Source of the DNA: Myxococcaceae bacterium
GTDB lineage: Bacteria; Myxococcota; UBA727; JABDBI01
Direction: 5' to 3'
DNA length: 33,150 bases
Assembly (NCBI GenBank): GCA_037134495.1
Contig: JBAXMC010000003.1
Location: forward strand, 1-33,150
Positions within the stretch are counted from its first letter, which is position 1, and every line of letters starts with the position of its first letter. This document shows, one piece after another, positions 2,004 through 24,500 of the stretch. A program made the translations under genes and the position numbers. The notes under the pieces are model-generated. The model was not told the DNA's origin and did no database searches. It saw only the letters and a program-made list of their open reading frames with translations.

Positions 2004-2880
2004 AGATTTAGCACTCATCGGCTGCGGTCGTTGGGGCAAAAACTTGGCCAGAGTGTTTAATAATTTAGGCGTTCTTCATACGATTTACGATCTTAATTTC
2101 GAAGACCTCACCCTAAATCCCTCTCCACCAAGTGTAGAGGGACTTGAAAACAAAATCCGGATAGCTCAGAATTTTGAGACAGCTCTAGATAGTAGCATTA
2201 AAAAAGTAGTTATCGCGACACCCTCTCACACGCATTTTGAGTTGGTTCAGATAGCCTTGGAAGCAGGGAAAGACGTATTGGTTGAAAAACCGATGTGCTT
2301 TGAAACTACACAAGCTGAGATTCTTTGTAAGCTCTCTCAAAAATATCAACGCATCTTAATGGTTGGACATCTGCTCCGATACCATCCAAGCTTTCTCATG
2401 TTACAAAGCTTGATTAAACAAGAATCCATTGGAAAACTGCAGTCTATTCATACGATTCGTTTTCATACAGCCGCTCCTAGACCAGGAGGAGTTTTGATGG
2501 ACTTGGCTATTCATGACTTATCCATGGCATTAGCACTCATGGGCAGCTCTCAGAATATTCATTTAGAAATTCAAGCAGGAAGCTTGCAAGCCGTTAAACA
2601 ACAAAAATTAATCGTAACAGGAACTCTTGGAGAAATTGCTTTTAATGACCAAATGCCTTTTCAGCAGAAACTAAGGCTCAATGGTCGCCTGATTGCTTCA
2701 TTACCCTTGGAGCCTTTAGAATTAGAATGTCGGCATTTTTTAAAAGCTTGTTTAAATCGCTTGCCCCCTTGGACAGATGCCAAAGAATCACTCAGGATAC
2801 TTGGTTTCATGGAACAATGTCAGATCGAAACAAACTCAAATTTTGCAAACTTGGTTTTTGACAGCAGGGAAAACACATGA
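1996..2880 (+). CDS. Gfo/Idh/MocA NAD-dependent oxidoreductase (GnnA/WbpB-like)
   Basis: IGCGRWG Rossmann motif, IATPSHTH, VEKPM, VGHLLRYHP, DLAIHD; contains the in-frame repeat at 2105-2141. Confidence 0.9.
   Translation: MPKDLALIGCGRWGKNLARVFNNLGVLHTIYDLNFEDLTLNPSPPSVEGLENKIRIAQNFETALDSSIKKVVIATPSHTHFELVQIALEAGKDVLVEKPMCFETTQAEILCKLSQKYQRILMVGHLLRYHPSFLMLQSLIKQESIGKLQSIHTIRFHTAAPRPGGVLMDLAIHDLSMALALMGSSQNIHLEIQAGSLQAVKQQKLIVTGTLGEIAFNDQMPFQQKLRLNGRLIASLPLEPLELECRHFLKACLNRLPPWTDAKESLRILGFMEQCQIETNSNFANLVFDSRENT
2105..2141 (+). repeat. Intragenic palindromic repeat, copy 1 (diverged; encodes LTLNPSPPSVEG)
   Basis: acctcaccctaaatccctctccaccaagtgtagaggg, similar to 8363-8399 and 22903-22939. 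Confidence 0.9.
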
Positions 2881-3068
2881 AGCCTTTTGTATTCATGATG
2901 CTGCTGATGGCAGCGCCAATTCATGCCAGCCAAGTTCACGACAAAATGGCACGAAATGCTTGTATTGCTCTGGCTGCAGGCCTAGTATTAGTCGGGCCTG
3001 CTTGGTGGGTCATCTTACTGGCAACACCTGAAGGCTCAAGATTTCTCAGCAATCTGCTCTATCGATAG
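2877..3068 (+). CDS. Small hypothetical protein with signal peptide and one TM segment
   Basis: ATGA overlap with the upstream gene; MKPFVFMMLLMAAPIHA signal-like N-terminus, then hydrophobic IALAAGLVLVGPAWWVILL. Confidence 0.6.
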   Translation: MKPFVFMMLLMAAPIHASQVHDKMARNACIALAAGLVLVGPAWWVILLATPEGSRFLSNLLYR

Positions 3069-3100
3069 ACCATGCCCATGGCTTCGCGAACTTCGTCAAG
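3059..3100 (-). repeat. Displaced duplicate of the trpS 3' end (LDEVREAMGMVYR-stop)
   Basis: 3065-3100 matches 4011-4046 at 32/36 nt; all four differences are synonymous third positions. Confidence 0.93.
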
Positions 3101-3112
3101 AAAGCAGACATA

Positions 3113-3420
3113 TTATGACTTTGCAAATCGCATCAATGGTTCGCAGTTGTTTTGGTCTGCTTCACGCAAAGCCGTCAAATAGTTCTTTCGAAGTTCTCCA
3201 GTCGTTGTAATAGTACCAATATGCCTTGTCTTTAGGCCCCAACTAAAGCGAGGCCCGCCCATTTGAACAACCAGCAAATCAGCCATGAGACGAGCATGTC
3301 GCCCATTGCCATTAGGAAATTGAGCAGATTTTGAGTTGTCACATGCTTAGGCAACAGACCTTTCAAATCATCTGGATCGAGAGGAGTTGAACCCTCAGCG
3401 TCAAAAAACTTGTTAGTCAT
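3113..3420 (-). pseudogene. Mobile mystery protein B (Fic family), internally deleted and frameshifted
   Basis: N-terminus GSTPLDPDDLKGLLPKHVTTQ is joined near 3320 to a second frame reading FPNGNGRHARLMADLL...FSWG...YLTALREAD...PLMRFAKS-stop. Confidence 0.85.
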
Positions 3421-3871
3421 TCCAGAGTTCCCTTGGTTTTGTGTCTATAAGTTCTTTTGCCAATTCACTTATCTGCTGATGCTGTTCTTTCTTGCTAACA
3501 AGCTGGTCTTCAAGCTCCATCGAATGACTTAATATGGCAAGGCGCCCTGAAGCAACTTTTTTTGCCTGTTTTTCTATTATTTCTTCAATGGGTTCTCTAG
3601 GAATCAAAAAATAGACAAAATCACAATTGAGAGCGTCTGCTGCCGCTTGTATACTCTTTAAAGCAGCGGTCCCTTCAATCTCATTTTTTTCTAACTCGCT
3701 TACGCGTTGCTGAGAGACATTGAGCCGTTTACCTAACTGCCCTGCAGTCATCCCGAAAGCTTCGCGCATGGTTTTGACCCATCCCAACGCAGGCCTGCTC
3801 ACTTTTGTTGTAGATTGCAGCCACCTAAGTTGCTGTTCCAACTGACGAATCATGAGTTTTCTCATAAACAC
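3413..3871 (-). CDS. Mobile mystery protein A (XRE-family HTH protein)
   Basis: GWVKTMREAFGMTAGQLGKRLNVSQQRVSELEKNE, HSMELEDQ, C-terminal LW; paired with the Fic remnant. Start GTG 3871 or ATG 3865. Confidence 0.88.
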   Translation of the reverse strand: MFMRKLMIRQLEQQLRWLQSTTKVSRPALGWVKTMREAFGMTAGQLGKRLNVSQQRVSELEKNEIEGTAALKSIQAAADALNCDFVYFLIPREPIEEIIEKQAKKVASGRLAILSHSMELEDQLVSKKEQHQQISELAKELIDTKPRELWND

Positions 3872-3880
3872 AAACCACCT

Positions 3881-3955
3881 ATAACTTGTATCCAGTTAAA
3901 AAAATACATGTTAAAGCTTGTTTTGTCAATATATTTTAACAAGTTATGACTTGTT
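3881..3955 (-). promoter_or_regulatory. Sigma70-like promoter and inverted repeats (putative operators) of mobile mystery A
   Basis: Minus strand TTGACA(3929-3924)-N17-TATTTT(3906-3901); inverted pair ataacttgt (3881) / acaagttat (3939); imperfect palindrome aacaagttatgacttgtt 3938-3955. Confidence 0.55.
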
Positions 3956-4001
3956 CACCGGCAGACAAGCTCAGAAAAACTCAGCGCGAATTTTGAATTT
4001 C

Positions 4002-5069
4002 CTATAAGCCATAAACCATACCCATGGCTTCGCGGACTTCGTCCAGTGTCTTCGCACCGATTTCACGAGCACCTTCGTTGCCAATAGAAAGGACTTTAGA
4101 AACCAGGTTCGGATCTTTGGCAAATTCTAATCTGCGCTGACGCATAGGCGCCAAATAAGCATTGAGGCTCTCTGTAAGCAAAGATTTCAGTTTGCCTGAA
4201 CCCTGATCTCCAATTTGATCAGCGATTTGAATAGGTGTTTGACCTGTACACAAAGAGATTAGCCTCAGTAAATTAGCGACTTCAGGCCTATTCTCAGGCT
4301 CATAAGTGATCTGTCTTTCAGCATCTGTTTTGGCTGATTTGATTAGCTTGGCTGTCTCATCTTCTGTCGCTTTCAAAAAGATCGCATTATTGCGGCTTTT
4401 ACTCATCTTCTGCGAACCATCTAAACCCAAGATAGTGGGTGCTTCACTGAGCAGAGCATCAGGCTCTGGAAAAATATTTTTAAATCTTTCGTTAAAGCGT
4501 CTGGCAATTTTACGCGAGAGTTCTAAGTGCGGCAGTTGATCTTTACCCACTGGCACTAAATTACCCTTACAGAATAAAATATCAGCTGCTTGATGCACTG
4601 GATAAGTCAGCATGGCTGCATTCATAATATTTATGCCAGCTGCACGGATTTCGTCTTTAACCGTTGGATTTCGCTCCAATTCTCGAACACTCACCAAAGT
4701 TAAGAAGGGCAACAAAAGCTGGTTTAACTCTGGAATCGCACTATGTGCAAAGATCACCGTTTTTTGCTTAAACGGATCCAGGCCGGCCGCCAAATAGTCT
4801 AATAAGATCTCGCTTACATTAGATTGGATCTGTCCCACAGAATCTCGATCAGTCAAAACTTGATAATCCGCGATCACAATAAAAGTTTCTAAGCCCATAT
4901 TTTGGAGTCGAACCCGATTTGCAAGGGTTCCAAAATAGTGCCCTATGTGCAAAGCACCCGTTGGCCGATCGCCCGTTAGAACTCGATATTTCTGAGGATT
5001 ATTTAATAAATCAGCCGAAATTAGTTCGCTTTTTCTGATAGCTTCTTCAAAAGTTGAGTGGGATGTCAT
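4002..5069 (-). CDS. trpS: Tryptophan--tRNA ligase
   Basis: TGDRPTGALHIGH, YPVHQAADIL, VPVGKDQLPH, KMSKS; ATG at 5069 preferred over the TTG at 5108. Confidence 0.96.
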   Translation of the reverse strand: MTSHSTFEEAIRKSELISADLLNNPQKYRVLTGDRPTGALHIGHYFGTLANRVRLQNMGLETFIVIADYQVLTDRDSVGQIQSNVSEILLDYLAAGLDPFKQKTVIFAHSAIPELNQLLLPFLTLVSVRELERNPTVKDEIRAAGINIMNAAMLTYPVHQAADILFCKGNLVPVGKDQLPHLELSRKIARRFNERFKNIFPEPDALLSEAPTILGLDGSQKMSKSRNNAIFLKATEDETAKLIKSAKTDAERQITYEPENRPEVANLLRLISLCTGQTPIQIADQIGDQGSGKLKSLLTESLNAYLAPMRQRRLEFAKDPNLVSKVLSIGNEGAREIGAKTLDEVREAMGMVYGL

Positions 5070-5150
5070 AGAAATAAGATCCTTATGGCCTATTGACATT
5101 GGATGCAAGATCGATACAAGTCAAAAGTTCATATTTTTTAGGAGTCAAAC

Positions 5151-5264
5151 ATGAAGGTACGAGCCTCTGTTAAGAGGATTTGTGACAAATGTAAGGTAGT
5201 CAAGCGTAAGGGCGTCGTCCGTGTAATTTGCGAAGACACCCGTCATAAGCAGCGACAAGGATAA
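5151..5264 (+). CDS. rpmJ: 50S ribosomal protein L36 (absent from ORF track)
   Basis: [37 protein letters not shown]; AGGAG Shine-Dalgarno upstream. Confidence 0.98.
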
Positions 5265-5273
5265 CGATCAAAA

Positions 5274-5636
5274 ATGGCACGTATTGCAGGTGTAGATTTA
5301 CCCCGAAACAAAAGAATGGGCACAGCGCTCACTTACATTTATGGCATTGGTCCCGTGATCGCTAAAGACGTTCTGGCCAAAGCTAACGTAGATGAAGACA
5401 AACGCACAGATGCTTTAGGTGAAGACGAGATCGCACGGATTCGTGACGTACTCGAAGCTAACTATAAAGTAGAAGGTGATTTGAGACGCGAAGTTTCCAT
5501 GAACATCAAACGTTTAATGGACCTTGGCTGTTACAGAGGCCTCAGACATCGTAAAGGCTTGCCTGTACGCGGTCAAAGAACCCACTCGAATGCACGAACC
5601 CGCAGAGGCGGCAAACGTGGCGTGGTCCGACGTTAA
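5274..5636 (+). CDS. rpsM: 30S ribosomal protein S13
   Basis: [27 protein letters not shown]. Confidence 0.98.
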
Positions 5637-5657
5637 TAACTTTTGATGAGAGATTAA

Positions 5658-6044
5658 ATGGCAACCGAAACAAAAACAAAAAAACGAGTCAAAAAGAATG
5701 TCACCCAGGGCATCGCTCACGTTTACACAACTTTTAACAACACGATCATAACCATCGCGGATACAACTGGCGCAGCTGTCTCTTGGGCAAGCTGTGGCAG
5801 CAAAGGTTTTAAGGGCTCCAAAAAGAGCACGCCGTTCGCAGCTCAGGTTGCAGCAGAAGAAGCCTGCCGCAGAGCCAAAGATCATGGCATGAAGGCATTA
5901 GAAGTGTACATCAAAGGTCCTGGAGCAGGTCGTGAATCTGCCTTGCGTGCCATTTCCAGCTGTGGAATGCGCGTAACCATGATTAAAGATGTAACTCCTG
6001 TACCACATAATGGTTGCAGGCCTGCAAAACGTAGAAGAGTTTAA
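5658..6044 (+). CDS. rpsK: 30S ribosomal protein S11
   Basis: [29 protein letters not shown]. Confidence 0.98.
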
Positions 6045-6074
6045 ATTTTTTTTAGTTAAGAAGGTGATTTTCAT

Positions 6075-7100
6075 ATGCATCGTAATTGGCGAACATTAAT
6101 TCGGCCTAAAGGCTTAGTTGTTGACCGTGATGTCAGCGACAGCCGTTATGGCAAATTTGTATTAGAACCCCTAGAGCGTGGCTACGGTACTACTTTAGGT
6201 AACGCCTTACGCCGGACTTCACTCTCTTCTTTGCAAGGTTCAGCAATTACAGCGATCAAAATCGAAGGCGCTCAGCATGAGTTTACTTCTTTGCCTGATG
6301 TTAAAGAAGATGGCACTGAAATCGTTCTGAATCTGAAAGAAATCAATCTTAAGTTGCATGATGTCACTCACAAGTCCGCTCGGATTTCTAAAAAAGGTCC
6401 CTGTGAGATTCGCGCTAAAGACATTGAAGTAGATTCTTCGGTTGAAATCTTGGATCCTGAACAATACATCTGTACTGTTGCAGAAGGCGGCGTATTCAAA
6501 GCTGAGCTCACCATCAAAGGTGGCCGTGGCTATGTCCCTGCAGCTCAAATCAGAGATGAAGATCAGCCTGTCGGCACCATCAACATCGATGCTTTGTTCA
6601 GCCCTGTTCGCAAAGTGAACTACCACGTGACCAATGCTCGTGTGGGTCAACAAACCGATTATGATAAGTTGGTGATGGAAATCTGGACCAATGGGTCTGT
6701 GACTCCAGAAGACGCTTTGGGAATCTCTGCGAAGATCATGAAAGAACAGCTTTCAATCTTCATCAACTTCTCTGAAGATCTTGAACCCGTCTTGCCAGAA
6801 GCCACTCACCGTGTTGAGCGCCTCAATGATCATTTAAGCCGTACGGTTGAAGAACTCGAACTTTCAGTTCGATCTGCCAACTGTCTAGCTAACGCAAATA
6901 TTAGATTAATTGGTGATCTGGTACAAAGAAGCGAAAGCGAAATGCTCAAGACTAAGAATTTTGGTCGTAAGAGTCTCAAAGAAATCAAAGAAATCTTGGG
7001 CGAAATGGGCCTCTCATTGGGGATGCGAATCACCAACTGGCCTCCAAAACCAGGAACAACTCCGACTGCTACCCCTTCTGAATCGAGCGATGGAATCTAA
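6075..7100 (+). CDS. rpoA: RNA polymerase alpha subunit
   Basis: [36 protein letters not shown]. Confidence 0.98.
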
Positions 7101-7103
7101 TTT

Positions 7104-7457
7104 ATGCGTCACTTAAACAAAGGCCGAAAACTTAACCGTACCTCTTCTCACCGCAAAGCGATGTTTGCCAATATGGCGACTTCATTGTTCTTGCATGAGC
7201 GCATTACGACAACAGATGCTAAAGCCAAAGATCTTCGCGGTGTTGCTGAAGGTTTGATTCAACTCGGTAAGCGTGGTGATTTGCACGCACGACGTCAAGC
7301 TTTTCAAACCATCAGAGATCAAGCAGTTCTCAAAAAACTATTTGATGTGATCGCACCTAAGTATCAGGACCGTCAAGGTGGCTATACTCGGATCATGAAG
7401 AACGGCATTCGTAAAGGCGACTGCGCTCCTCTTTCTGTTATCGAATTGGTGGCCTAA
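7104..7457 (+). CDS. rplQ: 50S ribosomal protein L17
   Basis: [27 protein letters not shown]. Confidence 0.98.
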
Positions 7458-7466
7458 GGGCCTCTT

Positions 7467-7543
7467 GACGATGTAGCTCAGTTGGTTAGAGCGATGGTCT
7501 CATAATCCATAGGTCGGGGGTTCGAATCCCCCTTTCGTCACCA
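7467..7543 (+). tRNA. tRNA with CAT anticodon, probably elongator tRNA-Met (Ile2 not excluded)
   Basis: Acceptor GACGATG/TTTCGTC, D-arm GCTC/GAGC, anticodon loop CT-CAT-AA, T-arm GGGGG-TTCGAAT-CCCCC, encoded ACCA; paired 1-72 and no GGG/CCC anticodon stem, so not the initiator. Confidence 0.93.
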
Positions 7544-7545
7544 TT

Positions 7546-9888
7546 ATGACCTACGACCCCTCGAAAATAGAAGCAAAGTGGCAAACACGCTGGGAACAAG
7601 ACAAGACTTTTGAAGTCTCCCAGGATTTGACCGAGCTTCGTAAAAAACCCAAATATTATGTTCTAGACATGTTTCCGTACCCCTCTGGAGCTGGCTTACA
7701 CGTAGGTCACCCTGAAGGCTACACCGCGACAGACGTCATGGCGAGATTAAAACGAGCCATGGGTTATAACGTCATGCACCCCATGGGTTGGGATGCATTT
7801 GGACTCCCAGCAGAACGAGCTGCTATGCGGGACAATATTCACCCGGCGATTATTACCAAACGCAACATAGATAACTTTAGAGGCCAGATTAAGCGACTGG
7901 GCTTTAGCTATGACTGGTCCAGAGAAGTCAGTACGACGGATCCTGATTATTACAAATGGACCCAGTGGATCTTTCTAAAACTTTACGAGAAGAATTTGGC
8001 TTATTTAGCTGAAGTGCCTGTCAATTGGTGCCCTGCCCTTTGCACTGTCTTGGCCAACGAAGAAGTGAAAGATGGCAAATACGTAGAAACAGGCGATTTG
8101 GTTGAGCAGCGCGTCATGCGTCAGTGGATGCTCAAGATCACAGCCTATGCCGAAAGATTGCTAGAAGATCTAGAAGGCTTAGACTGGCCAGAAGGCGTGA
8201 AAGAAATGCAGCGCAACTGGATCGGCAAGTCTACGGGTTCTGAAATAGAATTTGAGATCGAAGGTCGTTCAGAAAAACTAAAAATCTATACAACCAGGCC
8301 CGATACTTTGCTCGGTGTGACTTTCTGTGTGATCGCGCATGGGCATGCATTGAACCTCGGAAACCTCACCCCCAACCCCTCTCCACCAAGTGGAGAGGGT
8401 AGTAATACGGGTATGAATGCTATTCACCCGATTACGGGCGAAAAACTGCCGATTTGGGTGGCTGATTATGTTCTGGCTGATTACGGCACAGGCGCGATCA
8501 TGGCTGTTCCCGAAACAGACGAGCGTGATCAGGCCTTTGCGAAACTTCATAACTTGTCGATTAGAACCTACGAGCCTTTGGAAGAATCCAAATGGCCAGG
8601 TGTTCGTAAAACTCAGTATAAGCTACGCGATTGGCTATTTTCGAGACAACGCTACTGGGGTGAGCCGATCCCCGTTGTTCACCTAGAAGATGGCTCTTTG
8701 CATGCTCTGTCAGAAAGCGATCTGCCTTTAGAGCTCCCCAAAGTAGACGCGTATAAACCCACAGATTCAGGTGAACCCCCACTAGCCAGAGCTTCTGAAG
8801 ACTGGCTAGAAGTTAAGTTACCTAATGGTCAAATTGGCCGCCGTGAAACCAATACGATGCCTCAATGGGGTGGGTCTTGCTGGTATTACCTGCGCTATTT
8901 AGACCCTAAGAACTCAGAGAAATTCTGCGCTTCCGAATTAGAACAATACTGGATGCCAGTTGATCTTTATGTGGGTGGTGTTGAGCACGCTGTTTTGCAC
9001 TTACTCTATGCTAGATTCTGGCACAAAGTTTTATATGATTGCGGCGTGGTCTCTACGAAAGAACCGTTTCAAAAGCTCTTTAATCAAGGCATGATTTTAG
9101 CGCACAGCTACCAAGATGAAGCCGGAAAATATTACTATCCAGAAGAAGTGGAACAAAAGGGCGCAGATTGGTTTGTTAAAACTTCGGGTGTGCCGGTCAA
9201 AACTCAAGTCGAAAAGATGTCTAAATCTCGCTACAACGTAGTGAACCCAGACGATGTCATCGCCAAATACGGTGCCGATTCAATGAGACTTTACGAGCTC
9301 TTCATGGGGCCGTTAGATCAAGTAAAACCTTGGCAAACCAATGGCGTTGAAGGCGTTTATAGATTCTTACAGCGCGCTTGGCGTTTAGCGACACGTGAGT
9401 TGTCTGATGATCCTGGCAGTTCAAATCCAGAATTATGGCGCCTGTATCACAAAACCCTCAAACAAGTTCAAGAACATACGCTGGAGCTGCGTTATAACAC
9501 TGCGATCTCACAGATGATGATCTTCGTGAACGAAGCAACAGCTGCAAAAATTTTACCCAAAGAGATTATTCTAGGCTTCTTAAAAACTTTGGCACCCTAT
9601 GCGCCGCATATTTGCGAAGAACTTTGGGAACGCCTGGGTCAAAAAGAGTTAATTTCTAAGACCTCATGGCCTGCTTTTGATTCTGCTCTGTGCGTAGAAG
9701 ATGAAGTAACAATAGGCGTTCAAATCAACGGCAAGCGCCGCGATGAAATGAAAGTAGCACGAGGACTATCGAAAGAAATCTTAGAGAAACAGGCTCTGGA
9801 ACTGGAACAGGTCAAATATTTTCTAAACGGTGCTGTGCCTAAGAAAATAATCGTTGTGCCGGACAGAATTGTGAATCTGGTGGTTTAA
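7546..9888 (+). CDS. leuS: Leucine--tRNA ligase with shortened CP1 editing domain
   Basis: [46 protein letters not shown]. Confidence 0.97.
8363..8399 (+). repeat. Intragenic palindromic repeat, copy 2 (encodes [12 protein letters not shown])
   Basis: acctcacccccaacccctctccaccaagtggagaggg; 9-bp stem ccctctcca/tggagaggg with loop ccaag. Confidence 0.95.
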
Positions 9889-9991
9889 TAATCTCGGGAA
9901 CATCTCCGCTGACACATAAATCAAGATTCATCGACATGCTTCTTGATTAGGCACCTCTTGTTTTACTTTATAAGCCTGTTAAAGAATCCGC

Positions 9992-10998: not shown

Positions 10999-11053
10999 TA
11001 CCCATCAACTTTTCAAAACACAGGATTATTCCTAAGGAGTCCTACGTTTAAAC

Positions 11054-11350: not shown

Positions 11351-11370
11351 TTTCTCAATTTCGTCCAGAT

Positions 11371-12195: not shown

Positions 12196-12303
12196 GCAGA
12201 CACCATGTCTACAAGCAATCACTGTAAAACAGGCATATTCTAAAAAGCTATCGGATGAATGACCGATCCTGTGGAACCAACAACAGATTTCAAGAAATTA
12301 CTT

Positions 12304-16263: not shown

Positions 16264-17110
16264 GAGTCAGGTTATTGAGCTGATTAAAGCCAGCTTAAAA
16301 CCTGTTTTGGCTGCTGGTGCCCATGACTTGCTCGATGACGGTGCGTCTTTACCTCCCTGCCCGCCCGGTTGCACACGTGTTGTCAGTCTAGATGCCTTCC
16401 AAGAAAACAACGATTTTAAAATAGGCCTCGGATCTCTAGAGTCTGCTGGTTACAGAGCTCTTGTTCAAAATTTATCAGACTTAGCTGCCATGGGCGCAAA
16501 ACCCGTTGGGTTTCTTTGGTCTTTAGAGTTACCGAGTGCATGGCTCAGCAATAACGCCCTTTATTTAGGGCAATTTTGTACAGGTGTTTTACAAGCTTGC
16601 CAAAAATATAACTTGGAATTTTATGGTGGCGATTTGAGCACCACGAAACACGCTTTCAGTTGCGCCATCACAATCTTTGGAGATGTCTTAGGCAAGCCTC
16701 TTGGAAGACAAGGCGCAAAACCAGGCGATAAAATTTATGTCAGCAGAGAGTTGGGAGCATCAGCTGCGCTAAAATATCAGTCATATCCTGAACCTGAACT
16801 TGAATTGGGGCAACAACTTATTAGTACCGCGACAGCTTGCATGGATATCTCCGATGGGCTGGCAAAAGATCTCACGCGACTGTGTAAAGCTTCCAAAGTA
16901 GGCGCGCGCATACACACAATACCTACTCATCACCTAGCCACAAAAGAGCAAGCACTCTATGGCGGTGAAGATTATGCGTTGTTATTCACGGGGAAAAAAG
17001 GGCTTGTAGAGATAGGTGAAATCACCGAAAGCCCTGAAATCTTAATTTTGAATGATTCTGAATATAAGCCCCTGATAAACAAGGGCTTCGATCATTTCGA
17101 AAAAGCTTAG
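16250..17110 (+). CDS. thiL: Thiamine-monophosphate kinase
   Basis: DDGA, NLSDLAAMGAKP, GGDL, MDISDGL, GGEDYALLFT, GFDHF; probable TTG start at 16250. Confidence 0.93.
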   Translation: MNLSESQVIELIKASLKPVLAAGAHDLLDDGASLPPCPPGCTRVVSLDAFQENNDFKIGLGSLESAGYRALVQNLSDLAAMGAKPVGFLWSLELPSAWLSNNALYLGQFCTGVLQACQKYNLEFYGGDLSTTKHAFSCAITIFGDVLGKPLGRQGAKPGDKIYVSRELGASAALKYQSYPEPELELGQQLISTATACMDISDGLAKDLTRLCKASKVGARIHTIPTHHLATKEQALYGGEDYALLFTGKKGLVEIGEITESPEILILNDSEYKPLINKGFDHFEKA

Positions 17111-17775
17111 TCTTGTTTTGAGGACTCAGCTTTAGGCGGAGAGAGCCAAACACCTTTGTAACTTGGACGTCCGCGCAATCGCTCACGCCAAGATAACACA
17201 TGCGGATAGCCATCCAAATCCAGGTCTTTGACTTGATCGAGCAAATCTAGCAAGGGTGTCGCCAATGTATCGGCAATAGAATAGTCTCCGGCCAAGAAAG
17301 CACGTCTTGCCAAATGCTTATCTAAAACATCGATTTGTTGTTCTAGCTCTTCATGAAACGCAGCCAACATTTTAGGTCTCGCGTCTGGACCTTCGTACAC
17401 ATGAGCTTCTGTAAGAACACGCCAGAGCAAGTCTCCAAAGCCTGAAGCCAAGAAACTCAGCCAAGATAAAGCCTGAGCCTTTGAACTCAAATCATTGAAA
17501 CCTAAACTCGATTTTTCAAACCGCTCTGCCAAAAAGTGCAGAATCGCTGGAGATTCAAAAATCGAAAGCTCGCCACTGGGTCTGTGCTCAACCAAGGCAG
17601 GCAAACGCCCAAAAGGACTTCTGCGTAAAAAAGCAGCTGTTCTCTCTTTGTCGGGCTCTACTTCTCTAGGGGTAAAAGTCACACCACATTCATTGAGTGC
17701 TATTCGAACTGCAACGCAAAAAGGCGAAGCTCTATATTCATACAAAGTAAAAGGAGGAGCTTTGGAAGTAGCCAT
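17107..17775 (-). CDS. Glutathione S-transferase family protein
   Basis: SPFC, PFGRLPAL, FESPAILHFL, FLAGDYSIAD. Confidence 0.92.
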   Translation of the reverse strand: MATSKAPPFTLYEYRASPFCVAVRIALNECGVTFTPREVEPDKERTAAFLRRSPFGRLPALVEHRPSGELSIFESPAILHFLAERFEKSSLGFNDLSSKAQALSWLSFLASGFGDLLWRVLTEAHVYEGPDARPKMLAAFHEELEQQIDVLDKHLARRAFLAGDYSIADTLATPLLDLLDQVKDLDLDGYPHVLSWRERLRGRPSYKGVWLSPPKAESSKQD

Positions 17776-17784
17776 AATACTGGA

Positions 17785-18816
17785 TTATGGCATAACCACC
17801 GTTTTTTGGGAAGACAGCATGTTGTCCACCAATGACCCCAGTGTCCATGACAAGGTTGTTTCTCCAATCGTCTTCGCTGAGATTAATTTTTGGTTCCGCT
17901 TAAACCCAATTTTTTCTAACACAACAGACATATAAGCCGTCTGAAAACAAACTCTTTTCAAATATTGTTCTGCAAAAGGAGACGGCAATTCTTGTTTCAA
18001 AGCCCCAAGATCCTTACTGCAAATTTTAGGGCCTTGCTGATCTAAAATCTCAGATGACACTTTCTCTAGTTTAAGCAAAGAAGCCAGCTGCTCAAAATTA
18101 TCAACCAAGTAAAACTTCCCTTGAAGTTTTGGCTTGTGAATCACTTTGAGTTGACGTGCCAAAGATTTTCTACAAAGGGCATATTTAAGGGGAATCTTCT
18201 TGCAGTCTTTAGAACCAAACTCTTTCCAAGCTCGCAGCTCTCCAAGGCCATCATAGGTTCGAGAGTAAATCTCTTTCGTAGAAGAGGGTTTAAACGTCAC
18301 TTGCAATGAAGCCCCGCCCATTTCTAACAAACCTACGCTAGGCTTCGAAGTATTTTTGAGAGAACCGAGCAGATAATTAATCGATATCCACTCATAAACC
18401 CCCTCTGCAACACCCGAAATCACTTCAGCTACCGGCGATCCAAATCCAGATTCCAAAAACACTTTTTGCACCTCTGCTATAATGCGCTCTTGGCTTATTT
18501 TAGAGAGTGCCCTAACACCTCCTGTTGCTTGCAACCTAAGAGAGACTTGTTCAACAGGAATATTTTTACCGATTTGCTCTTTGGCAAAATCGAGCAGTTT
18601 TTCAAGATAAAGCCTGATACCTGGTAAGTTATGCTCAAATGCAGACAAACCCGGTTCTATTTTTAAGTTGCTTTTGTATTTGACGATGCTGTTACCGATT
18701 TCATAAACAAACACACGAGTTCCACTGCTTCCTGCATCCATCATGACTGCATAGTCAACAGCTAAGATCGGAGAAGCAGTCAAAACAAGAAGCATTAGCA
18801 AAAGAGTCTGTCTCAT
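17785..18816 (-). CDS. Secreted GDA1/CD39-family NTPDase (apyrase)
   Basis: Signal peptide; apyrase conserved regions DAGSSGTR, ATGGVR, EGVYEWISINYLLG, EMGGASLQ, SWTLG. Confidence 0.9.
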   Translation of the reverse strand: MRQTLLLMLLVLTASPILAVDYAVMMDAGSSGTRVFVYEIGNSIVKYKSNLKIEPGLSAFEHNLPGIRLYLEKLLDFAKEQIGKNIPVEQVSLRLQATGGVRALSKISQERIIAEVQKVFLESGFGSPVAEVISGVAEGVYEWISINYLLGSLKNTSKPSVGLLEMGGASLQVTFKPSSTKEIYSRTYDGLGELRAWKEFGSKDCKKIPLKYALCRKSLARQLKVIHKPKLQGKFYLVDNFEQLASLLKLEKVSSEILDQQGPKICSKDLGALKQELPSPFAEQYLKRVCFQTAYMSVVLEKIGFKRNQKLISAKTIGETTLSWTLGSLVDNMLSSQKTVVMP

Positions 18817-18831
18817 GGTAAATCCTAGAAC

Positions 18832-19200
18832 ATGATTCCGCGTCTTTTAAAATGGACCTTGGCAAGTATAATCGTTACAGGTCTCATATTTATTTCATGG
18901 CCAAAGTTTGAAGCATTCCAGTGCAGGTCGATTCAAAGCGAAGCCAAAGCACAGCTTAGTCATTTATATGAAGCCGAGCAATTTTACTTTGCCCACCATC
19001 ACAGCTATACTTCTTTAGAGATGCTCATCCAAGAAGGCCTAATTAAATCAAATGAAAAAAATTATACTTATAAAACTTCTTACTACGATGATAAAACTTT
19101 TGAAATTGTAGCCACGTCTAAAACCCTCAACCAAGATGTCTGGAGTATTAACCAGGCAGATCGACTCCAATCCATTAAAAATGCTTGCACCTTCAAATAA
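18832..19200 (+). CDS. Type IV pilin-like protein lacking the prepilin cleavage motif
   Basis: TM segment followed by PKF..FQCRSIQSEAKAQL..LYEAEQFYF, and DVWSIN near the C-terminus. Confidence 0.7.
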   Translation: MIPRLLKWTLASIIVTGLIFISWPKFEAFQCRSIQSEAKAQLSHLYEAEQFYFAHHHSYTSLEMLIQEGLIKSNEKNYTYKTSYYDDKTFEIVATSKTLNQDVWSINQADRLQSIKNACTFK

Positions 19201-20137
19201 AGTTGTCCAACGCTGGAAAATACCTGATTTCTTAAGCGGCATCCGCGCTGATCACTACTTGGTTCACCATGTAGGCCGTATCTCACGAAACAAAGCTCAG
19301 CGCATTATCGAATCTGGCGACTTTCGGTTAGAACACCAAATGCTCAAAGCGAGTAAGCGCCTCAAAGCAGGCGACCCTGTTGAACTTTGGCGCACGCCTC
19401 CTGATTCTCCCAAAATCGAAAATCTCAAAGTTTCCGTTTTGTATGAAGATAAGCGTTTTTTAGTCATCAATAAACCTGGAAATTTAGCCATACATCCAAC
19501 AGCGCGTTATTTGTATCAAACCCTCACGCACTGGCTAAAAACCAATTATCCTGGCGAACCCATTCACCCTTGTCACAGGCTCGATCGAGAAACCAGTGGC
19601 GTCTTAATTTGCACACGTGATTCCGAAACCGAGTCACTTATTAAACGCGCTTTTATGGCCGGCAAGATCGACAAAACTTACTGGGCCCTGGTTGAAGGTC
19701 GTCTCCCTAAACCCATTTCATGCAGTAGGCCTTTAGCTTTACAAGGCTCACGCGGCTTGGTGGGGATCAAGATGATCGAAGACCCAGAGGGCCTTGCTTG
19801 TCAAACAGACTTCACTCCCTTGCACTATGACCCGGTCTCCAATTGGAGCTTGGTTGAATGTACTCCAAAAACTGGACGTCAGCATCAGATTCGGGCTCAT
19901 TTGGCCTTGGAAGGCTACCCTATTGTAGGAGACAAACTCTATGGCATGGGCGAAGAATTTTTCGATGCTTACACAAAATACGAAGCCAATTTAAGTTCGC
20001 TCCCACTCCACCGCCAGGCTTTACATGCTAAACGAGTTTGCTTAGAGCTTGAGGGTAAAAAATATGCTTTTGAGGCAGAGAACCCATTCTTTGATGCATT
20101 TCGATTAGGCACAGCTCCTCTTGACAAAACATTGTAA
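19181..20137 (+). CDS. RluA/RluD-family pseudouridine synthase
   Basis: S4-like N-terminus, INKPGNLAIHP, HRLDRETSG, TGRQHQIRAH, PIVGDKLYG, RQALHA; probable ATG at 19181. Confidence 0.93.
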   Translation: MLAPSNKVVQRWKIPDFLSGIRADHYLVHHVGRISRNKAQRIIESGDFRLEHQMLKASKRLKAGDPVELWRTPPDSPKIENLKVSVLYEDKRFLVINKPGNLAIHPTARYLYQTLTHWLKTNYPGEPIHPCHRLDRETSGVLICTRDSETESLIKRAFMAGKIDKTYWALVEGRLPKPISCSRPLALQGSRGLVGIKMIEDPEGLACQTDFTPLHYDPVSNWSLVECTPKTGRQHQIRAHLALEGYPIVGDKLYGMGEEFFDAYTKYEANLSSLPLHRQALHAKRVCLELEGKKYAFEAENPFFDAFRLGTAPLDKTL

Positions 20138-20148
20138 AGTATTATTAT
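20121..20148 (+). promoter_or_regulatory. Sigma70-like promoter of the AAA-vWA-RCC1 operon (probably leaderless)
   Basis: TTGACA-N16-TATTAT, then 6 nt to ATG 20155; no SD. Confidence 0.6.
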
Positions 20149-20154
20149 TTCGCA

Positions 20155-21546
20155 ATGTTTAAAACAATATTTTCAATACTATTGCTAACCACTCCGGTTC
20201 TTGCTCAGAACTTATTTAAGCACGAAAATCTTAAGTATCAAGGTCTTACAGAGCATGGCCTCTCTGAACTTAAGCAGATTCGAGACGCTTTGCGCCAACG
20301 TTTTGGACTGTTTGAACAAGAGTTCAAAGGCCTCTCCAATATACACCATGCAGCCACAGTGGCTCGTATGGCTAAAGCCAACATGTTCTTGTACGGCCCT
20401 CCAGGTGGTGCTAAGTCCATGCTTATTCAGTGGCTTTTTTCTGGAGAAGCAGAACCAGCTTTTCAGGTCCAATTACATCAAATGATGAGCGAACAAGCTT
20501 TTATTGGTGGCCAAAACTTTGAAGCTGCCAAAGAAGGACGTTTCGTATTAAACACTGAAAGCAGTTTGGCTAATTTCAGAGTCGCTCTTTTGGACGAAGT
20601 AGAAAAAGGAAACCCTGCGACACTCGCAGCTCTATTGAGTCTATTAAACGAACGTAAAGTCTTGGCAGGTAATCAGGTATTTGACGCCAAAACAGAGACT
20701 GTTTTCGCAACCAGTAACGCAAACTTGCCTGAATTTTTTTTGCAGTTCCTAGAATCCGGTCAGCGTTCAACAGCCCCTGCTTTATTAAACCGATTCCAAT
20801 TTAAGGGTTTTATGTACAACTGGTTGTCAGCGAATGACCAAGCTGATTTGGATGCCAGACGCGAGAAAAAAGCACTTTGCAAAATTTTTGAGACTTGCGC
20901 TAACGATGCTGTTTTCTTAACACCTCATCAACTAGATTGGGAAAAAATGCGTTCTTTTGCAAAAGTACTTTTTGTGAAGAGCTCATTTTTTAACACTGCT
21001 TACAATGAAATGGCTAATTTGCTACGCGACTCTACCAACAATGCTGTACGTGAATCAGAACTCAAACATCAGAAAGATCGATATAACGAACCTTTCGTTT
21101 ATTTCCCATCTTGCGATTGGACTGAGCGTTTACGTCAGCAAATCCCAGATGCAGTGCAATACTCAGCACTGGTTGATTTCCTTTTATCATCTTGGGCTGA
21201 TGACGCAAATCTTGAGAAAATGACGCGTAAACAACGTGAACTCGGACCCTACTCTTTGTGGCGTGCTTTCTTGATTACGACAACGCCTGGACCAGGAAAA
21301 GCTCAGTTAGAGTTAGACGGCGAAAAAATGAATATTAATTTTGGAACGCTTATTAATGCAGAGAAAGCTAGAGACGTGCGTGAGCAACGCATGATCCAAA
21401 ACTTGCTTGATGAACAAAATCGATTTAAAAGTGTTTATGTAAGTTTGACTGAAAAGTTCCAAGAATCGATCAAAAATGCAGCCAAATTTAGTTCTAACTC
21501 AGATGAATCCAATCAAGACTTTGAATTTTTAGTCATGAAGAAATAA
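20155..21546 (+). CDS. RavA/MoxR-type AAA+ ATPase with N-terminal signal peptide
   Basis: Walker A GPPGGAKS, Walker B LLDEVEKG, LLSLLNERK, ATSN, ALLNRF; N-terminus MFKTIFSILLLTTPVLA-Q. Confidence 0.85.
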   Translation: MFKTIFSILLLTTPVLAQNLFKHENLKYQGLTEHGLSELKQIRDALRQRFGLFEQEFKGLSNIHHAATVARMAKANMFLYGPPGGAKSMLIQWLFSGEAEPAFQVQLHQMMSEQAFIGGQNFEAAKEGRFVLNTESSLANFRVALLDEVEKGNPATLAALLSLLNERKVLAGNQVFDAKTETVFATSNANLPEFFLQFLESGQRSTAPALLNRFQFKGFMYNWLSANDQADLDARREKKALCKIFETCANDAVFLTPHQLDWEKMRSFAKVLFVKSSFFNTAYNEMANLLRDSTNNAVRESELKHQKDRYNEPFVYFPSCDWTERLRQQIPDAVQYSALVDFLLSSWADDANLEKMTRKQRELGPYSLWRAFLITTTPGPGKAQLELDGEKMNINFGTLINAEKARDVREQRMIQNLLDEQNRFKSVYVSLTEKFQESIKNAAKFSSNSDESNQDFEFLVMKK

Positions 21547-21548
21547 TT

Positions 21549-24500
21549 ATGAAGAATTTTATCTTAATCTGGGCACTGGCCTTGCCAGTGCTTTCAAGTA
21601 CACCTGCCCAGCTGATCTCTCAGTATGAAAACGACTTGTTTCCATACACGGATCCGTTTGTTCGCGTTCAAAATCTTGAACAAGGTCAGTTGATTTTTGA
21701 CAAGCTCAAGACATTTAAGCCGTTAGCGCTTGTGTCTGATGCCCTGGTTACGTTTCATTCACGGTCTGTAGAACCAGATGCAAACATGATCCAGTTTGTG
21801 ATGGAGCAAACCGAAAAAGTGATTACTTCAAGCGGTTATAGCAAGCTAGAAAAGCAATCTAACTTGCTAGCTTTGTATTACTTGCGCGATTACTTAAGTC
21901 GTTTTGAACAAAAAGAAGCTGTCGATCGTGATGGTGTTCAAGCAGGCGAAAACAAGAAAAAACAGGATCCAAAGCATCCTGAGATGCCAGAAGAATATAA
22001 ACCAACCACCAAAGACACAGAAAAAGATAAGGAACCAGGCAGCAAGGATGAACAAGTTGTTATCTTAGAAACCAATTTTGCAACCCCTTATTTGGGTCAA
22101 CGAACTTATGCAGAAGTCGTTCGGCATGCTGCTGCGCCTTTTAAAAGCATTGAATTGCCTACACAATTGCCTACGCCAGAGGCTTATAAAAACACCGGCA
22201 AAGAAATGTCAGTCTACATGCTTGGTGAAACAGAAATCACATTGTTTATCCCTCCAGGATATGAACCCAGACAACCTGAAGATTCTCGCGCTCGAATTAC
22301 ACGAAGCTCCAAGGGTGCCTATCACTTAAAAGTTTCAGAAGTTCTGCTCTTGGTAACAATTCCACTACAACCAACAAGCTCCCATAACCTCAGCCCTGTT
22401 TTGCATGAAATCTACACAAGACCTGTTGGTTTTCTAGACTCAGAATGGCCAGCGTTAATTCGCAGTGATTTATTTGACAAGAAATTCTCAAATTCTTTAA
22501 CCACCGCAGAAGCTGTAAGTAAGCACTTGGCAACAAAATATCTATACAGTGTTGGAGCAAGACCAGAAACAGACCCTGTCGACGCCCTCAACGCCGGTGC
22601 TTTTCAGTGCGATATGGCAGCTTATTTAATGGTCGGCATTTTACGCGATGTTTACAAAATCCCATCTCGTGTTGTTTCAGGCTATCGCGCTAAAAAACAT
22701 GGCAATGGTAAAAATCAAAGAAGTTACTTGGTCTTGCCAGGTGATGCTCATGCTTGGGTAGAAGTCTATGACAATGGCATCTGGCGCCCCATGGATCCAA
22801 CGCCTATTCTAAAAGACAAAGAGAAAGAGGACGAAGAGAAAGGCGAAAAAGATGAATATTCAGATCGGGAATTGGAAGATCAGCCTAAACCTGAATCGAA
22901 AAACCTCACCCCTAACCCCTCTCCACCAAGTGGAGAGGGTAATAAATCTGAAACCAGCGCTGGGAATTCCACTTTATCTATGGATTCTGAAGAACTAGCC
23001 AGCATGTTAACGCTCGGATCTTTGGAACTAAACCCTTCTGAAGACAGCGATCCACTTAGAGACAGAGCCATTCGCGTATTGCTGCGTTTAATTTTGGACC
23101 CAAATCTAGACGGCGTCAAAACTTACGAAAGGCTTTATCAATCAAGACAGCTATTTTTATCTATCTCGGAGCTCAAAAGCTTGGTTCAAGAATTGCTGGT
23201 AATTCATGAGAAGAAGCACCCTAATCTAAAAACTTGGTTGGAAGATATTTTGGTCTTTTTAGACCAGCGTGATTTGCCCACCACTTATCAAAATATTTAT
23301 CGCATCAAAAAATCTTTAGAGCTTTATGCAAAGCTCTTGGACAAAAACATGCGCTACCCAAGCGAGTTATTGGACCAGTTAGACGGTATTTTGCGAGACA
23401 TCTATGGACTTTCACACAGTGATTCAGCCGAAATAGCCATGGTCGCTGAATTCTATGATTCACTGCCTTCTTTGGTTCAAACACTGCTTGCTCAGCAATA
23501 TGGACTGATTCGAGTAGGCCCCAATGCGCCAACCAAAGAAGTTGCGAGGCTTTTAAAAGGTGGAACTCTCAATGATCTTAAGTTATTGGCCATTTTATCG
23601 CCTCTGACAGAGTTTATTTTGAATTCAACCCCTCGACCAGAATTCGAAGAAGTCAGAACTTGGACTCGGGATTCACGGCGATTAATGGGCAATGATTTGT
23701 TACCTCTGAATAGATTTTCAGATCTAACACGTTCGCTCATTACCAAACCAGGTCAAGATCTAGAAAAAAACTTAAGAGAAGGCAACATCTATACTCGCAC
23801 ACATCGTCAACGAATCGATGTACCAACTGGGTTTGGTAAAGATGATGCAGAACGTATTACGATTGTTTTGTATGACACTTCAGGCAGTATGTATGGAGAC
23901 CCTGAGCGTTTCCAGGCCGGCCTCATTTCTGCGTTTACAGCACGTGCTTTGAGTGATTTGGCACCCAGCGGAGCACATCGACATCGTATTGTCTTGGTGC
24001 CTTTTGATGATAAACCTGGCAACCCTGTTAAAGTTACGAATACCCAAGAAGCGCTGGATATTATCCATAATTACCGTTCTAAATTAGCCAATACTGCTGG
24101 CGGAACTGATATTCAAGCAGCTTTGATTCAAGCAATGGCCTTGATTGCTGATGCTGAACGTCGTTCAGGAGAGCCGCTAGCTGCTGCCAATATTATTCTG
24201 ATGACAGATGGCCAGTCACCACTTGATATTCCTAAGTTGGCAGAAGCCAGAAGCGCTATTGACAGAACAACACCTCTACAAATCATGTTTGTGGCCATTG
24301 GAACCAGCAATGATGAGTTGGTTAAATTCGTACAAGATTCTGAAAAAGCAGGCATCGAGACGGGTTTTTATCGAGAGTTTAATTCGGGTCTCATGAGCGA
24401 ATATATGAAAAAAGCGGATGCGCCTCCCGCACAAGGCTCTGCGGATAAGATTTACACAGAGAAAACATCTAGAGATTTGAGTCCGCAAACTCGAAACAGT

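Follow-up and report, generated by a model that had tools for sequence, protein, structure and literature searches.

Among the closest described counterparts of the repeat reported here, a hairpin-bearing unit of ~39 nt that is called the arm below, are the Rickettsia palindromic elements (RPEs), for which we know of no associated enzyme, the passage on them in PMC10969869 naming none. Like the arms, RPEs are palindromic, lie in frame in many copies in unrelated housekeeping genes of a small genome, and add a conserved peptide where the protein fold permits it (passages in PMC10969869). RPEs are ~100–150 bp long and confined to Rickettsia, whereas the shorter arms occur under ~14 phylum-level labels; the arms, unlike RPEs, also use at least four frames and both orientations and form the terminal repeats of a nuclease cassette. 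The two families are set apart here by description, not by sequence. REP sequences and REPINs, like the arms, are short hairpin repeats found both singly and as inverted doublets, and in each family the repeats also border one protein gene, but that gene encodes a Y1 HUH transposase in REP/REPIN systems and a PD-(D/E)xK (DUF559) nuclease in the present case, and the arms lack a GTAG or CGTC tag, lie mostly inside genes as singlets and are conserved across phyla. The small dispersed repeats (SDRs) of cyanobacteria, reportedly presented by Elhai and colleagues in 2008 as very small mobile repeats, can like the arms lie inside genes and inside other repeats, a likeness of description and not of sequence. 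MITEs share with the arms terminal inverted repeats, short gene-less derivatives in far larger numbers than the form with a gene, presence in one genome and absence from a close one and, in the passages of PMC10969869, occasional in-frame fusions. Unlike in MITE families, the gene-bearing 'autonomous' cassette codes for a small nuclease and for no recognisable transposase, no consistent target-site duplication was found, and single arms, which are half-elements, are commoner than any other form. Homing endonucleases of the Vsr-like (EDxHD) kind are encoded within introns or inteins, and each homes to a single allelic site. The VSR, DUF559 and DUF2726 families are placed in one superfamily group, which includes the homing endonuclease I-Bth0305I (passages in PMC3424549; PMC9403480). 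Elements of the I-Bth0305I type and the cassette are both selfish elements built around a small nuclease; unlike the former, the cassette gene is free-standing between hairpin-bearing inverted repeats, which also occur at ~58 sites per genome.

The window, which is the whole 33,150-nt stretch of DNA analysed, contains three arms and their three host genes:

Positions 1996..2880, plus strand: host gene 1, a Gfo/Idh/MocA-family oxidoreductase of 294 aa (Pfam PF01408, GFO_IDH_MocA, E 4.8e-17).
Positions 2104..2141, plus strand: arm copy 1, a diverged 'CCCTAAAT' variant, found by hairpin-core and profile matches.
Positions 7546..9888, plus strand: host gene 2, leucyl-tRNA synthetase, LeuS (Pfam PF00133 and PF13603; orthologue alignment).
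Positions 8362..8400, plus strand: arm copy 2, a C-rich tail and a hairpin with a 10-bp stem, found by hairpin-core and profile matches.
Positions 21549..24848, plus strand: host gene 3, a transglutaminase-core and VWA protein of 1099 aa (Pfam PF01841 and PF13519; orthologues).
Positions 22902..22940, plus strand: arm copy 3, found by hairpin-core and profile matches.

The original prediction held that a 37-bp palindromic element had been inserted in frame into three unrelated genes, with copies at 2105, 8363 and 22903, and the sequences at these positions agree with that reading. The repeat is real: its 23-nt hairpin core matched the plus strand at 2119 (one mismatch), 8377 and 22917 (no mismatch at either) and was matched in 0 of 100 dinucleotide shuffles of the window. 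Identity between copies 2 and 3 is 43/45 nt (window 8361-8405 vs 22901-22945), and each of the three copies is read in the sense frame of its long ORF. As had been claimed, the window holds no intergenic copy, because a profile search of its contig returned no arm beyond the three. The arm hairpin has a 10-bp stem and a 3-nt loop, with a DNA folding energy of -10.7 kcal/mol (z -4.3 and -4.6), which falls to -6.8 kcal/mol in copy 1 with its one stem mismatch; RNA folding of the arm hairpins gave -18.8 and -13.1 kcal/mol. In copy 1 the conserved sequence extends to ~2151 (ACTTGAAAAC), as in other copies of the 'CCCTAAAT' variant. A separately assembled public contig of 3518 bp covers window positions 7600-9800 including the LeuS arm with 0 differences, the assembly being independent and the sample possibly not, since its run may be the source sample; runs X2-X4 contain parts of the stretch, and among the pieces listed none bridges the LeuS arm.

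Copy 1 encodes LTLNPSPPSVEG, residues 37-48 of the oxidoreductase, and copies 2 and 3 each encode a 12-letter peptide, in the former case at residues 273-285 of LeuS within the editing (CP1) domain and in the latter in an acidic/Pro-rich linker of low complexity, at residues 452-464 of the transglutaminase/VWA protein. The peptide is missing from 12 LeuS orthologues, 17 oxidoreductase homologues and 2 of 3 VWA orthologues (those of G008 and G005), as expected of inserted DNA and not of an ancestral motif. LeuS of this genome has 780 aa, vs 832-876 aa in most relatives. Orthologues of the oxidoreductase at E<=1e-20 were found in none of G001, G002, G008, G011 and G005, and the comparison for this protein used wider homologues instead; the closest is exactly 12 aa shorter at the position of copy 1. 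When mapped on the predicted structure of the oxidoreductase, the arm residues fall in the lowest-confidence loop of the N-terminal domain (pLDDT 56).

The genome, a metagenome-type assembly of 1.99 Mb in 270 contigs, contains 74 arms by profile search (E<1e-3), which bears out the expectation of many copies genome-wide. These comprise 42 single arms of ~39 nt and 16 inverted pairs, 15 of them gene-less (92-124 bp, MITE-like) and one enclosing a DUF559 gene (447 bp). The 37-mer is therefore indeed repeated, but it is not the whole element; it is rather the terminal arm of the pairs and of the DUF559 cassette. Each arm is built of an A-rich/C-rich tail ((A)AACCTCACCCC-TAA-) followed by the hairpin CCCTCTCCAC-loop-GTGGAGAGGG with its 10-bp stem. 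ORFs of at least 150 aa contain 30/42 single arms and 6/16 pairs, so that most single copies are intragenic and the arm, like an RPE, is a palindromic repeat in many unrelated genes, with a unit size, pair size and host range in many phyla that differ from those of RPEs. The arms are not enriched in genes, as long ORFs hold 71% of single arms and 38% of pairs and cover 87% of the genome. The shared strand and frame of the three window copies is a coincidence, because genome-wide the in-ORF arms use at least four frames and both orientations: the 30 single arms in ORFs lie in two of the sense frames (7 and 11), in the third sense frame (2), in mixed frames (2) or antisense (8). A single arm is free of stop codons in 4/6 frames and contributes ~13 codons that encode Pro/Ser/Thr/Gly-rich peptides. 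Pfam matches were obtained for 34/36 host ORFs, and the housekeeping hosts of arm peptides include LeuS, TruB, MurE, CoaBC, FeoB, Mfd, AcrB, DHFR and NuoL. The arms often lie between domains (E1 alpha|beta, TrpE|TrpG, PGM I|II, lipoyl|E3-binding), and that of FeoB directly follows the G domain. These results support the earlier view of a mobile-type repeated mini-element tolerated in protein loops and linkers.

A nuclease or transposase gene flanked by copies had been proposed as a thing to look for, and a DUF559 gene was found between two inverted arms:

C6:17967-18413: cassette of 447 bp, with an arm at 17967-18005(+), the DUF559 match at 18041-18361, within the protein-coding stretch 18017-18400, and an arm at 18374-18413(-).

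This gene is the sole DUF559 match of the genome (G000:C6:18041-18361, E 4.3e-31) and scores 107.8 bits against PF04480, with a curated cut-off of 20.6 bits. The arms are inverted with their tails outward; GGAGAGGGGG of the left arm lies 10 nt upstream of the ATG, the position expected for a ribosome-binding site, and the stop codon of the ORF is a TAG within the tail of the right arm. No recognisable transposase is encoded, the DUF559 nuclease being the only gene. The cassette and the gene-less pairs carry the same arms as terminal inverted repeats, as in MITEs, and this also holds in other phyla. Among 38 aligned DUF559 loci, each of the motif positions R..R...T..E...W...R....FRRQ....DF....L..E.DG..H....D..R, including the catalytic motif D...E.DG..H, is kept in at least 85%. 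In passages of PMC9881135, 'DUF559 domain-containing protein' shows enrichment (odds ratio 14.3) among genes that lie between inverted repeats and are predicted targets of programmed inversion. Among the open-access titles and abstracts listed for DUF559, and in passages of some of these papers, no description of a repeat-flanked DUF559 cassette was found; searches for the arm and its peptides as strings returned one unrelated paper and nothing describing the arm, and those on Vsr with inverted repeats or homing endonucleases, or on bacterial MITEs, returned nothing related.

With a probability of roughly 0.6, the arms are a family of small mobile elements whose full form is the DUF559 cassette and whose pairs and single arms are non-autonomous derivatives. 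The full form would be a ~450-bp cassette in which two inverted arms enclose the gene of DUF559, a Vsr-like PD-(D/E)xK nuclease, and the gene-less pairs and single arms would derive from it. The nuclease would mobilise the arms by recognising the arm, probably as a hairpin or cruciform, and cutting there; repair of the break, copied from other arms, could then spread and homogenise the family, and an element of one type could by this route be replaced by one of another type at a given position in a protein. Arms in frame at the ends of proteins, in linkers between domains or in loops on the surface would escape purifying selection, because four of the six frames are open and the ~13 codons specify Pro/Ser/Thr/Gly-rich peptides, and would persist in a gene-dense genome, the three window genes included. 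By analogy, we read the arms in genes as a Rickettsia-RPE-like in-frame tolerance of what may be nuclease-cassette derivatives. We know of no transposase that consists of a nuclease of 110-130 aa alone, which counts against this explanation.

The arm-DUF559-arm layout recurs in the relatives G014, G011 and G037, in a Gracilibacteria locus (L040), and at 4/4 DUF559 loci of the Chloroflexota genome G041, where the profile places an arm on each side of L180, L183 and L185 and on one side of L175, the other arm of L175 being recognised by eye. How often close DUF559 relatives are arm-flanked rests on genome searches: an arm was matched at 7/11 stand-alone DUF559 loci of G041 and its relatives (nhmmer, E<0.01), and an arm-like hairpin with a G-rich tail was recognised by eye on at least one side at 10/11. 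Exact inverted repeats of 14-48 nt flank 11/15 DUF559 loci, these being other repeats of the same build. In a quick tree search of DUF559 proteins, with repeat types B, C and D and several 'arm-like' assignments made by eye, the three type B loci form one clade (support 100), the three type C loci another (support 96), and the A-type proteins of G000, G014 and G011 a third (support 98). The B-type hairpin is likewise multi-copy and includes pairs (19 copies in G002, 32 in G004, 7 in G008 and 27 in G011). Within family f1, a strong DUF559 match occurs in 5/5 arm-positive genomes vs 2/15 arm-negative ones, with weak matches in two more of the latter. Counts across genomes are not independent, as most compared genomes are relatives. 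The exact arm pattern occurs in genomes under ~14 phylum-level labels, so that the lineage restriction of RPEs, to which the repeat had been likened, does not extend to it; its presence or absence also varies among species of one genus.

Several observations in these genomes were counted against the proposed origin from a cassette. In G002 (92% complete) and G008 (96%), which have A-type arms, the repeats beside the DUF559 genes are of type B or C, and no A-type cassette was found in either genome; G011 yielded no B-type cassette despite its 27 B-type hairpins; and G043, in which arms are present (L007, L010 and L058), gave no DUF559 match at E<=1e-10. At loci L176 and L208 the arm tails point inward.

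An alternative that we consider unlikely is that the arm pairs are primary and are moved by another enzyme, DUF559 being a free-standing homing-endonuclease gene that parasitises the space between the arms. This would account for the arms in G002, G008 and G043, where no matching cassette was found, for the five gene-less pairs that share their own conserved AT-rich palindromic spacer, and for the grouping of DUF559 with Vsr and I-Bth0305I (passages in PMC3424549; PMC9403480). However, no other candidate enzyme is associated with the arms, the likely ribosome-binding site and the stop codon of the gene come from the arms, gene clades and repeat types co-vary, and single arms are far more numerous than pairs, all of which count against this alternative.

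It is much less probable that selection maintains the repeat as a nucleic-acid signal (a terminator, a hairpin that stabilises mRNA, a G-rich structure or a site bound by a protein, for example), with the in-gene copies as exapted linkers. The hairpin is very stable, many arms lie exactly at domain junctions, and the orthologous arms of C114 and L198 are conserved at 37/40 positions vs ~85% in their flanks, as such a signal might be; yet the arms take both orientations and at least four frames inside genes, differ in presence among species of one genus, and are linked to a nuclease cassette, which suggests selfish spread. An Rfam search of the window at the gathering threshold matched only a tRNA at 7467-7540 and no family covering the arms.

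Marginally less credible again is the proposal that a Y1 transposase of the RAYT type (IS200-like) moves the arms, which would then be REP/REPIN sequences with an incidental DUF559 link. The inverted doublets do resemble REPINs, whose inverted-doublet architecture was reportedly set out by Bertels and Rainey in 2011, 10/16 pairs lie outside long ORFs, and the genome has seven Y1_Tnp matches, one of them a single-copy ORF of 171 aa at C1:43078-43590; yet the 42 singlets dominate and 30 of them are intragenic, 0/7 Y1 matches are arm-flanked (the arms nearest the C1 gene are 4-5 kb off), and Y1 presence does not track the arms, Y1_Tnp occurring in 10/12 family-f1 genomes of which seven are arm-negative. 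Near-identical copies across phyla, as seen for the arms, are unusual for REPINs. The arm consensus also carries no GTAG or CGTC end tag (tags as given in the abstract of PMC3733652).

There is next to no chance that the copies arose in assembly, or that they reflect a peptide motif, ancestral or convergent, in place of inserted DNA: a fragmented metagenome-type assembly of 270 contigs would invite the former, but the bridging contig across the LeuS copy, the nucleotide identity of copies 2 and 3 and the peptide-free homologues largely refute both.

For the mobile-element reading, filled and empty sites were compared. A 121-bp pair in G002 (L189) faces a clean empty site in G000 (C13, ~8596), the sole clean filled/empty pair, which allows a TAA duplication; the flanks of five conserved pairs share no target-site duplication, and none is consistent overall. 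No filled/empty comparison was obtained for the cassette, because in G001, G002, G008, G011 and G014, which keep the flanking genes, the intergenic DNA differs in length and content. Orthologue alignment, from which empty sites had been anticipated, showed a clean empty site of 39 nt for none of the intragenic single arms, and this, with the lack of a consistent duplication, was also counted against the explanation.

At the intragenic positions, relatives have a different sequence of similar length or other elements, and five proteins have, in other genera, palindromic elements of other types at the very position of the arm. This slot pattern suggests a little-studied route of linker turnover and possibly of gene fusion. 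A wider proposal, possible but on balance doubtful, is that DUF559 cassettes are an undescribed cross-phylum class of mobile elements, with a small Vsr-like nuclease gene between hairpin-bearing inverted arms, whose nuclease cuts arm hairpins anywhere; repair from another arm would spread single arms and pairs, hold the copies close to identity and overwrite one type by another at slots. If so, slots in essential proteins would be long-lived, heritable insertion points, where selfish DNA keeps rewriting the linkers and adjacent genes may fuse. RPE-like behaviour is not peculiar to Rickettsia, as a second and far more widespread repeat family does likewise, writing peptides of 12-13 residues into dozens of housekeeping enzymes. 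The DUF559 family is very common, and a link to hairpin repeats would supply it with a function and the repeats with a mechanism. Recurrent arm-encoded peptides in the predicted proteins of many phyla can also mislead alignments and annotation. In the window, the transglutaminase/VWA orthologue of G011 carries a different (B-type) arm at the place of copy 3.

The + strand of the window carries exact copies of the hairpin core CCCTCTCCACCAAGTGGAGAGGG at 8377 and 22917 and a copy with one mismatch at 2119, and 0/100 shuffles of the window matched it. Each copy, together with the C-rich tail beside it, forms an element (hereafter arm, about 39 nt) that lies in the sense frame of its ORF and adds a peptide of ~12 residues:

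1996-2880, + strand, ORF hosting copy 1, Pfam match to Gfo/Idh/MocA oxidoreductase
7546-9888, + strand, ORF hosting copy 2, matches to leucyl-tRNA synthetase families (LeuS)
21549-24848, + strand, ORF hosting copy 3, matches to transglutaminase-core and VWA

The original prediction of a palindromic element inserted in frame into three genes is confirmed, as are the sequence of its tail and the near-identity of copies 2 and 3 (43/45 bases agree); the stem is likewise present, with one mismatch in copy 1, but measures 10 bp with a 3-nt loop instead of 9 bp. Folded as DNA, the hairpin reaches -10.7 kcal/mol, a stability never attained by shuffles. An assembly artefact is contradicted by a separately assembled public contig (possibly from the source sample), which covers the LeuS copy with zero differences. 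In run X1, a lake-water metagenome, contig depths add up to 238 across the arm (window 8340-8413) vs about 9 elsewhere in leuS, and the arm is also found on many other contigs of that run. The leuS start lies 6 bp downstream of a tRNA gene (7467-7540).

The arm peptide is present in 0/17 aligned homologues of the oxidoreductase, the closest of which (50% identity) is shorter by exactly 12 residues at the arm site, and in 0/12 LeuS orthologues, as an insertion had implied. In the oxidoreductase structure model (mean pLDDT 90), residues 41-50 average 56 and are predicted as coil after strand 2. Most LeuS orthologues have about 35 editing-domain residues at the arm site and G001, an arm-free genome of the same genus, has a different 17-residue stretch, so the arm sits where the genus had already lost a segment. 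In this genus, LeuS lacks about 70 residues (780 aa in the source genome G000 and about 780-800 aa in G001 vs 832-876 aa in relatives, loci L117-L131), with editing-domain segments missing and the TTRPDT and GTG...DERD motifs kept. The VWA-protein arm, within a variable acidic/Pro-rich linker, is missing from the orthologues of the compared genomes G008 and G005, but a B-type arm (AAAATCCCCCCTAGCCCCCCTTCTTCAAAGGGGGG) occupies the same place in G011, B and C being other inverted-repeat types, assigned by eye, that flank genes of the Vsr-like nuclease family DUF559.

Three copies in the window had suggested many genome-wide, and a profile made with 36 strict copies gives 74 arms (E<1e-3) in the G000 assembly (1.99 Mb, 270 contigs, 96% complete, 42.9% G+C; the window is contig C3), namely 42 single arms, five of them "two-tailed" (a single hairpin with a tail either side), and 16 inverted pairs. 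Conservation begins at (A/G)ACCTC, preceded by a TCGGA-like stretch of weaker conservation, and stops just past the hairpin. Fifteen pairs are gene-less (92-124 bp), and an AT-rich palindromic spacer common to five of them indicates a true MITE-like family. This bacterial family has further small palindromic families (G000: C4, C15:10657, C52, C89:2741; G014: L268, L278, L282), one of them a GCCTGCC...GGCAGGC hairpin with an GGTGAGGTTTT tail, the same tail as that of the arm.

With stop-to-stop ORFs >=150 aa (87.1% of G000) as gene proxy, 30/42 single arms (p 0.009) and 6/16 pairs (p 5e-6) lie within ORFs, both fewer than random, and genes therefore tolerate arms rather than attract them. The shared strand and frame of the window copies did not prove general, since the 30 in-ORF single arms use all open frames: the sense frame of the window copies (7, including those 3), the second (11) and third (2) sense frames, a mixed frame through indels (2), and two antisense frames (6 and 2), giving 22 sense vs 8 antisense (p 0.016). 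Pfam matches were obtained for 34/36 host ORFs, which include NuoL, DapF, TruB, SufBD, phosphoglucomutase, two Mur ligases, E2 acyltransferase, FeoB, AcrB, MacB, Mfd, DHFR, CoaBC, Fmt and RsmE. Arms reside in frame in loops and linkers and, by Pfam boundaries, are often inter-domain, as in E1 alpha/beta (residues 312-325, between domains 6-299 and 334-505), TrpE/TrpG (118-131, between 1-109 and 139-322), PGM I/II, lipoyl/E3-binding and B12/MeaB, while the FeoB arm lies directly past the G domain. The arm is the linker of fused enzymes at G000:C144:2650-4278 and G000:C231:3-983 (E1 alpha/beta dehydrogenase; TrpE/TrpG), the E1 alpha/beta linker arm being common to G000 and G002, and insertion between neighbouring genes may have fused both.

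Arm presence differs between species. In four additional host genes, picked for conservation and blind to outcome, the position (slot) of the G000 arm holds other palindromic elements in other genera:

TruB slot: G002, two-tailed B-type element; G008, A-type pair (A being the G000 arm type); G011 and G014, other hairpin repeats; G001, nothing recognisable
MurE slot: G008, two-tailed B-type element; G002, GCCTGCC...GGCAGGC hairpin; G014, long CACCCCGGC-type repeat
CoaBC slot: G014, small hairpin then ACCTCTCCCC
FeoB slot: G011, A-type arm in reverse orientation; G014, its own repeat type

Conversely, of the in-gene A-type sites of G002, 2 hold that arm in G000 too and 3 hold different or degenerate sequence there (CTTGCCTGCC type in two). 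Orthologous arms are more conserved than their flanks (37/40 positions vs about 85%). Of the empty sites anticipated among orthologues, no clean one was found for an intragenic arm, the sole clean filled/empty pair being an intergenic 121-bp pair (L189 vs C13). Many slots are probably old, with their contents replaced in place; alternatively, the sharing may reflect insertions that struck the same, very few permissive sites independently and more than once. The G014 CACCCCGGC...GCCGGGGT repeat type encodes HPxL..GSSTGSR peptides within TruB, MurE and FeoB. In G001 (L283) FeoB is interrupted by a stop exactly at the slot, leaving ORFs of 180 and 414 aa, and G011 has two CoaBC matches with identical scores on two contigs (C4:8429-9565, C8:8555-9691), which could be duplication or assembly redundancy (assembly contamination 5%).

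A nuclease gene flanked by copies, which the original prediction had proposed to look for, lies in the sixteenth pair (447 bp, G000:C6:17967-18413), whose ORF is the sole DUF559 match (PF04480, E 4.3e-31) in G000. The GGAGAGGGGG of the left arm is 10 nt upstream of the ATG and the stop is a TAG within the tail of the right arm, so that gene and arms form one compact unit, and the anatomy of arm, pair and cassette is established. The same layout, tails outward, is seen in G014 (nuclease 56% identical), G011, G037 and a Gracilibacteria locus, as well as in the Chloroflexota genome G041, at 4/4 of its DUF559 loci (arms on both sides by profile at L180, L183 and L185; one side by profile and the other by eye at L175). 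When DUF559 loci that stand alone in G041 and its relatives were considered, nhmmer (E<0.01) found an arm in 7/11, and inspection by eye found one on one or both sides in 10/11. Tails point inward at two loci, L176 and L208. Intact DUF559 genes are associated with arms across phyla; within the source family f1, a strong match occurs in 5/5 arm-positive and 2/15 arm-negative genomes (weak in 2 more of the latter). Other DUF559 genes in relatives have different inverted repeats of the same build, hairpin and G-rich tail (e.g., B type, AAATTCCCCCTTTGAAAAAGGGGGTAGGGGGATTTT), and 11/15 DUF559 loci are flanked by inverted repeats of 14-48 nt that match exactly. In a quick tree of 38 DUF559 proteins, B-type loci (support 100), C-type loci (96) and the A-type nucleases of G000, G014 and G011 (98) each form one clade, and each position of the motif R..R...T..E...W...R....FRRQ....DF....L..E.DG..H....D..R is kept in >=85% of the 38 loci. 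The B hairpin is multi-copy, including pairs, in G002, G004, G008 and G011. DUF559 is also a domain in ORFs of 720-1780 aa of Chloroflexota relatives (L202-L205, L207, L209-L213, L215, L216), which resemble helicase-type fusions.

The DUF559 nuclease may act on the arm hairpin, and break repair templated by other arms would then spread, homogenise and replace arms. This agrees with the predominance of single arms among the products, with the absence of consistent target duplications, with several sites where sequence was replaced and not purely inserted, and with turnover at the slots. Against it, no A-type cassette was found in G002 and G008, which hold A-type arms, no B cassette in G011, which holds B hairpins, and no DUF559 match (E<=1e-10) in G043, which holds arms. 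DUF559 may instead be a homing gene parasitising arm pairs that something else moves; DUF559 nucleases have been grouped with the homing endonuclease I-Bth0305I (in the part of PMC3424549 available). That arms are REPINs moved by a RAYT is unlikely, as the Y1 genes of G000 lack flanking arms and Y1 genes are present in 7 arm-negative relatives. One IS605-type pair, a TnpB-like 403-aa ORF beside a Y1 transposase, lies at a contig end (G000:C185:1544-3084), and further Y1 genes are on C268, C229, C154 and C1, none near an arm.

Rickettsia palindromic elements (RPEs) are nearest to arms in behaviour, going by the accessible portion of PMC10969869, but size and lineage place arms outside them; the architecture resembles REPINs and MITEs, except that the gene flanked is a Vsr-like nuclease. 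The accessible part of PMC9881135 lists an enrichment of DUF559 proteins among the predicted targets of inversion, which fits genes between inverted repeats, and contains no description of a DUF559 cassette. No description of the arm family or the cassette was found in the open-access literature. We rate the repeat as real, of a known kind and new as a variant, and the nuclease cassette and slot turnover have a fair chance of being new.

The exact arm pattern, scanned in one genome per species, gave at least 111 stretches. Among the matches listed, of which 80 titles were tallied, labels were Chloroflexota-type (at least 44), Myxococcota-type (at least 8), Bacteroidota, Armatimonadota and Spirochaetota/Leptospirales (at least 5 each), Planctomycetota, Zixibacteria, CPR and Betaproteobacteria-type (at least 2 each), and Ignavibacteria, Acidobacteriota, Cyanobacteria, SAR324 and "Deltaproteobacteria" (at least 1 each). 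At loci with G+C <0.56, 13/38 arms lie inside ORFs >=200 aa, and in-frame residence is therefore general and not peculiar to G000.
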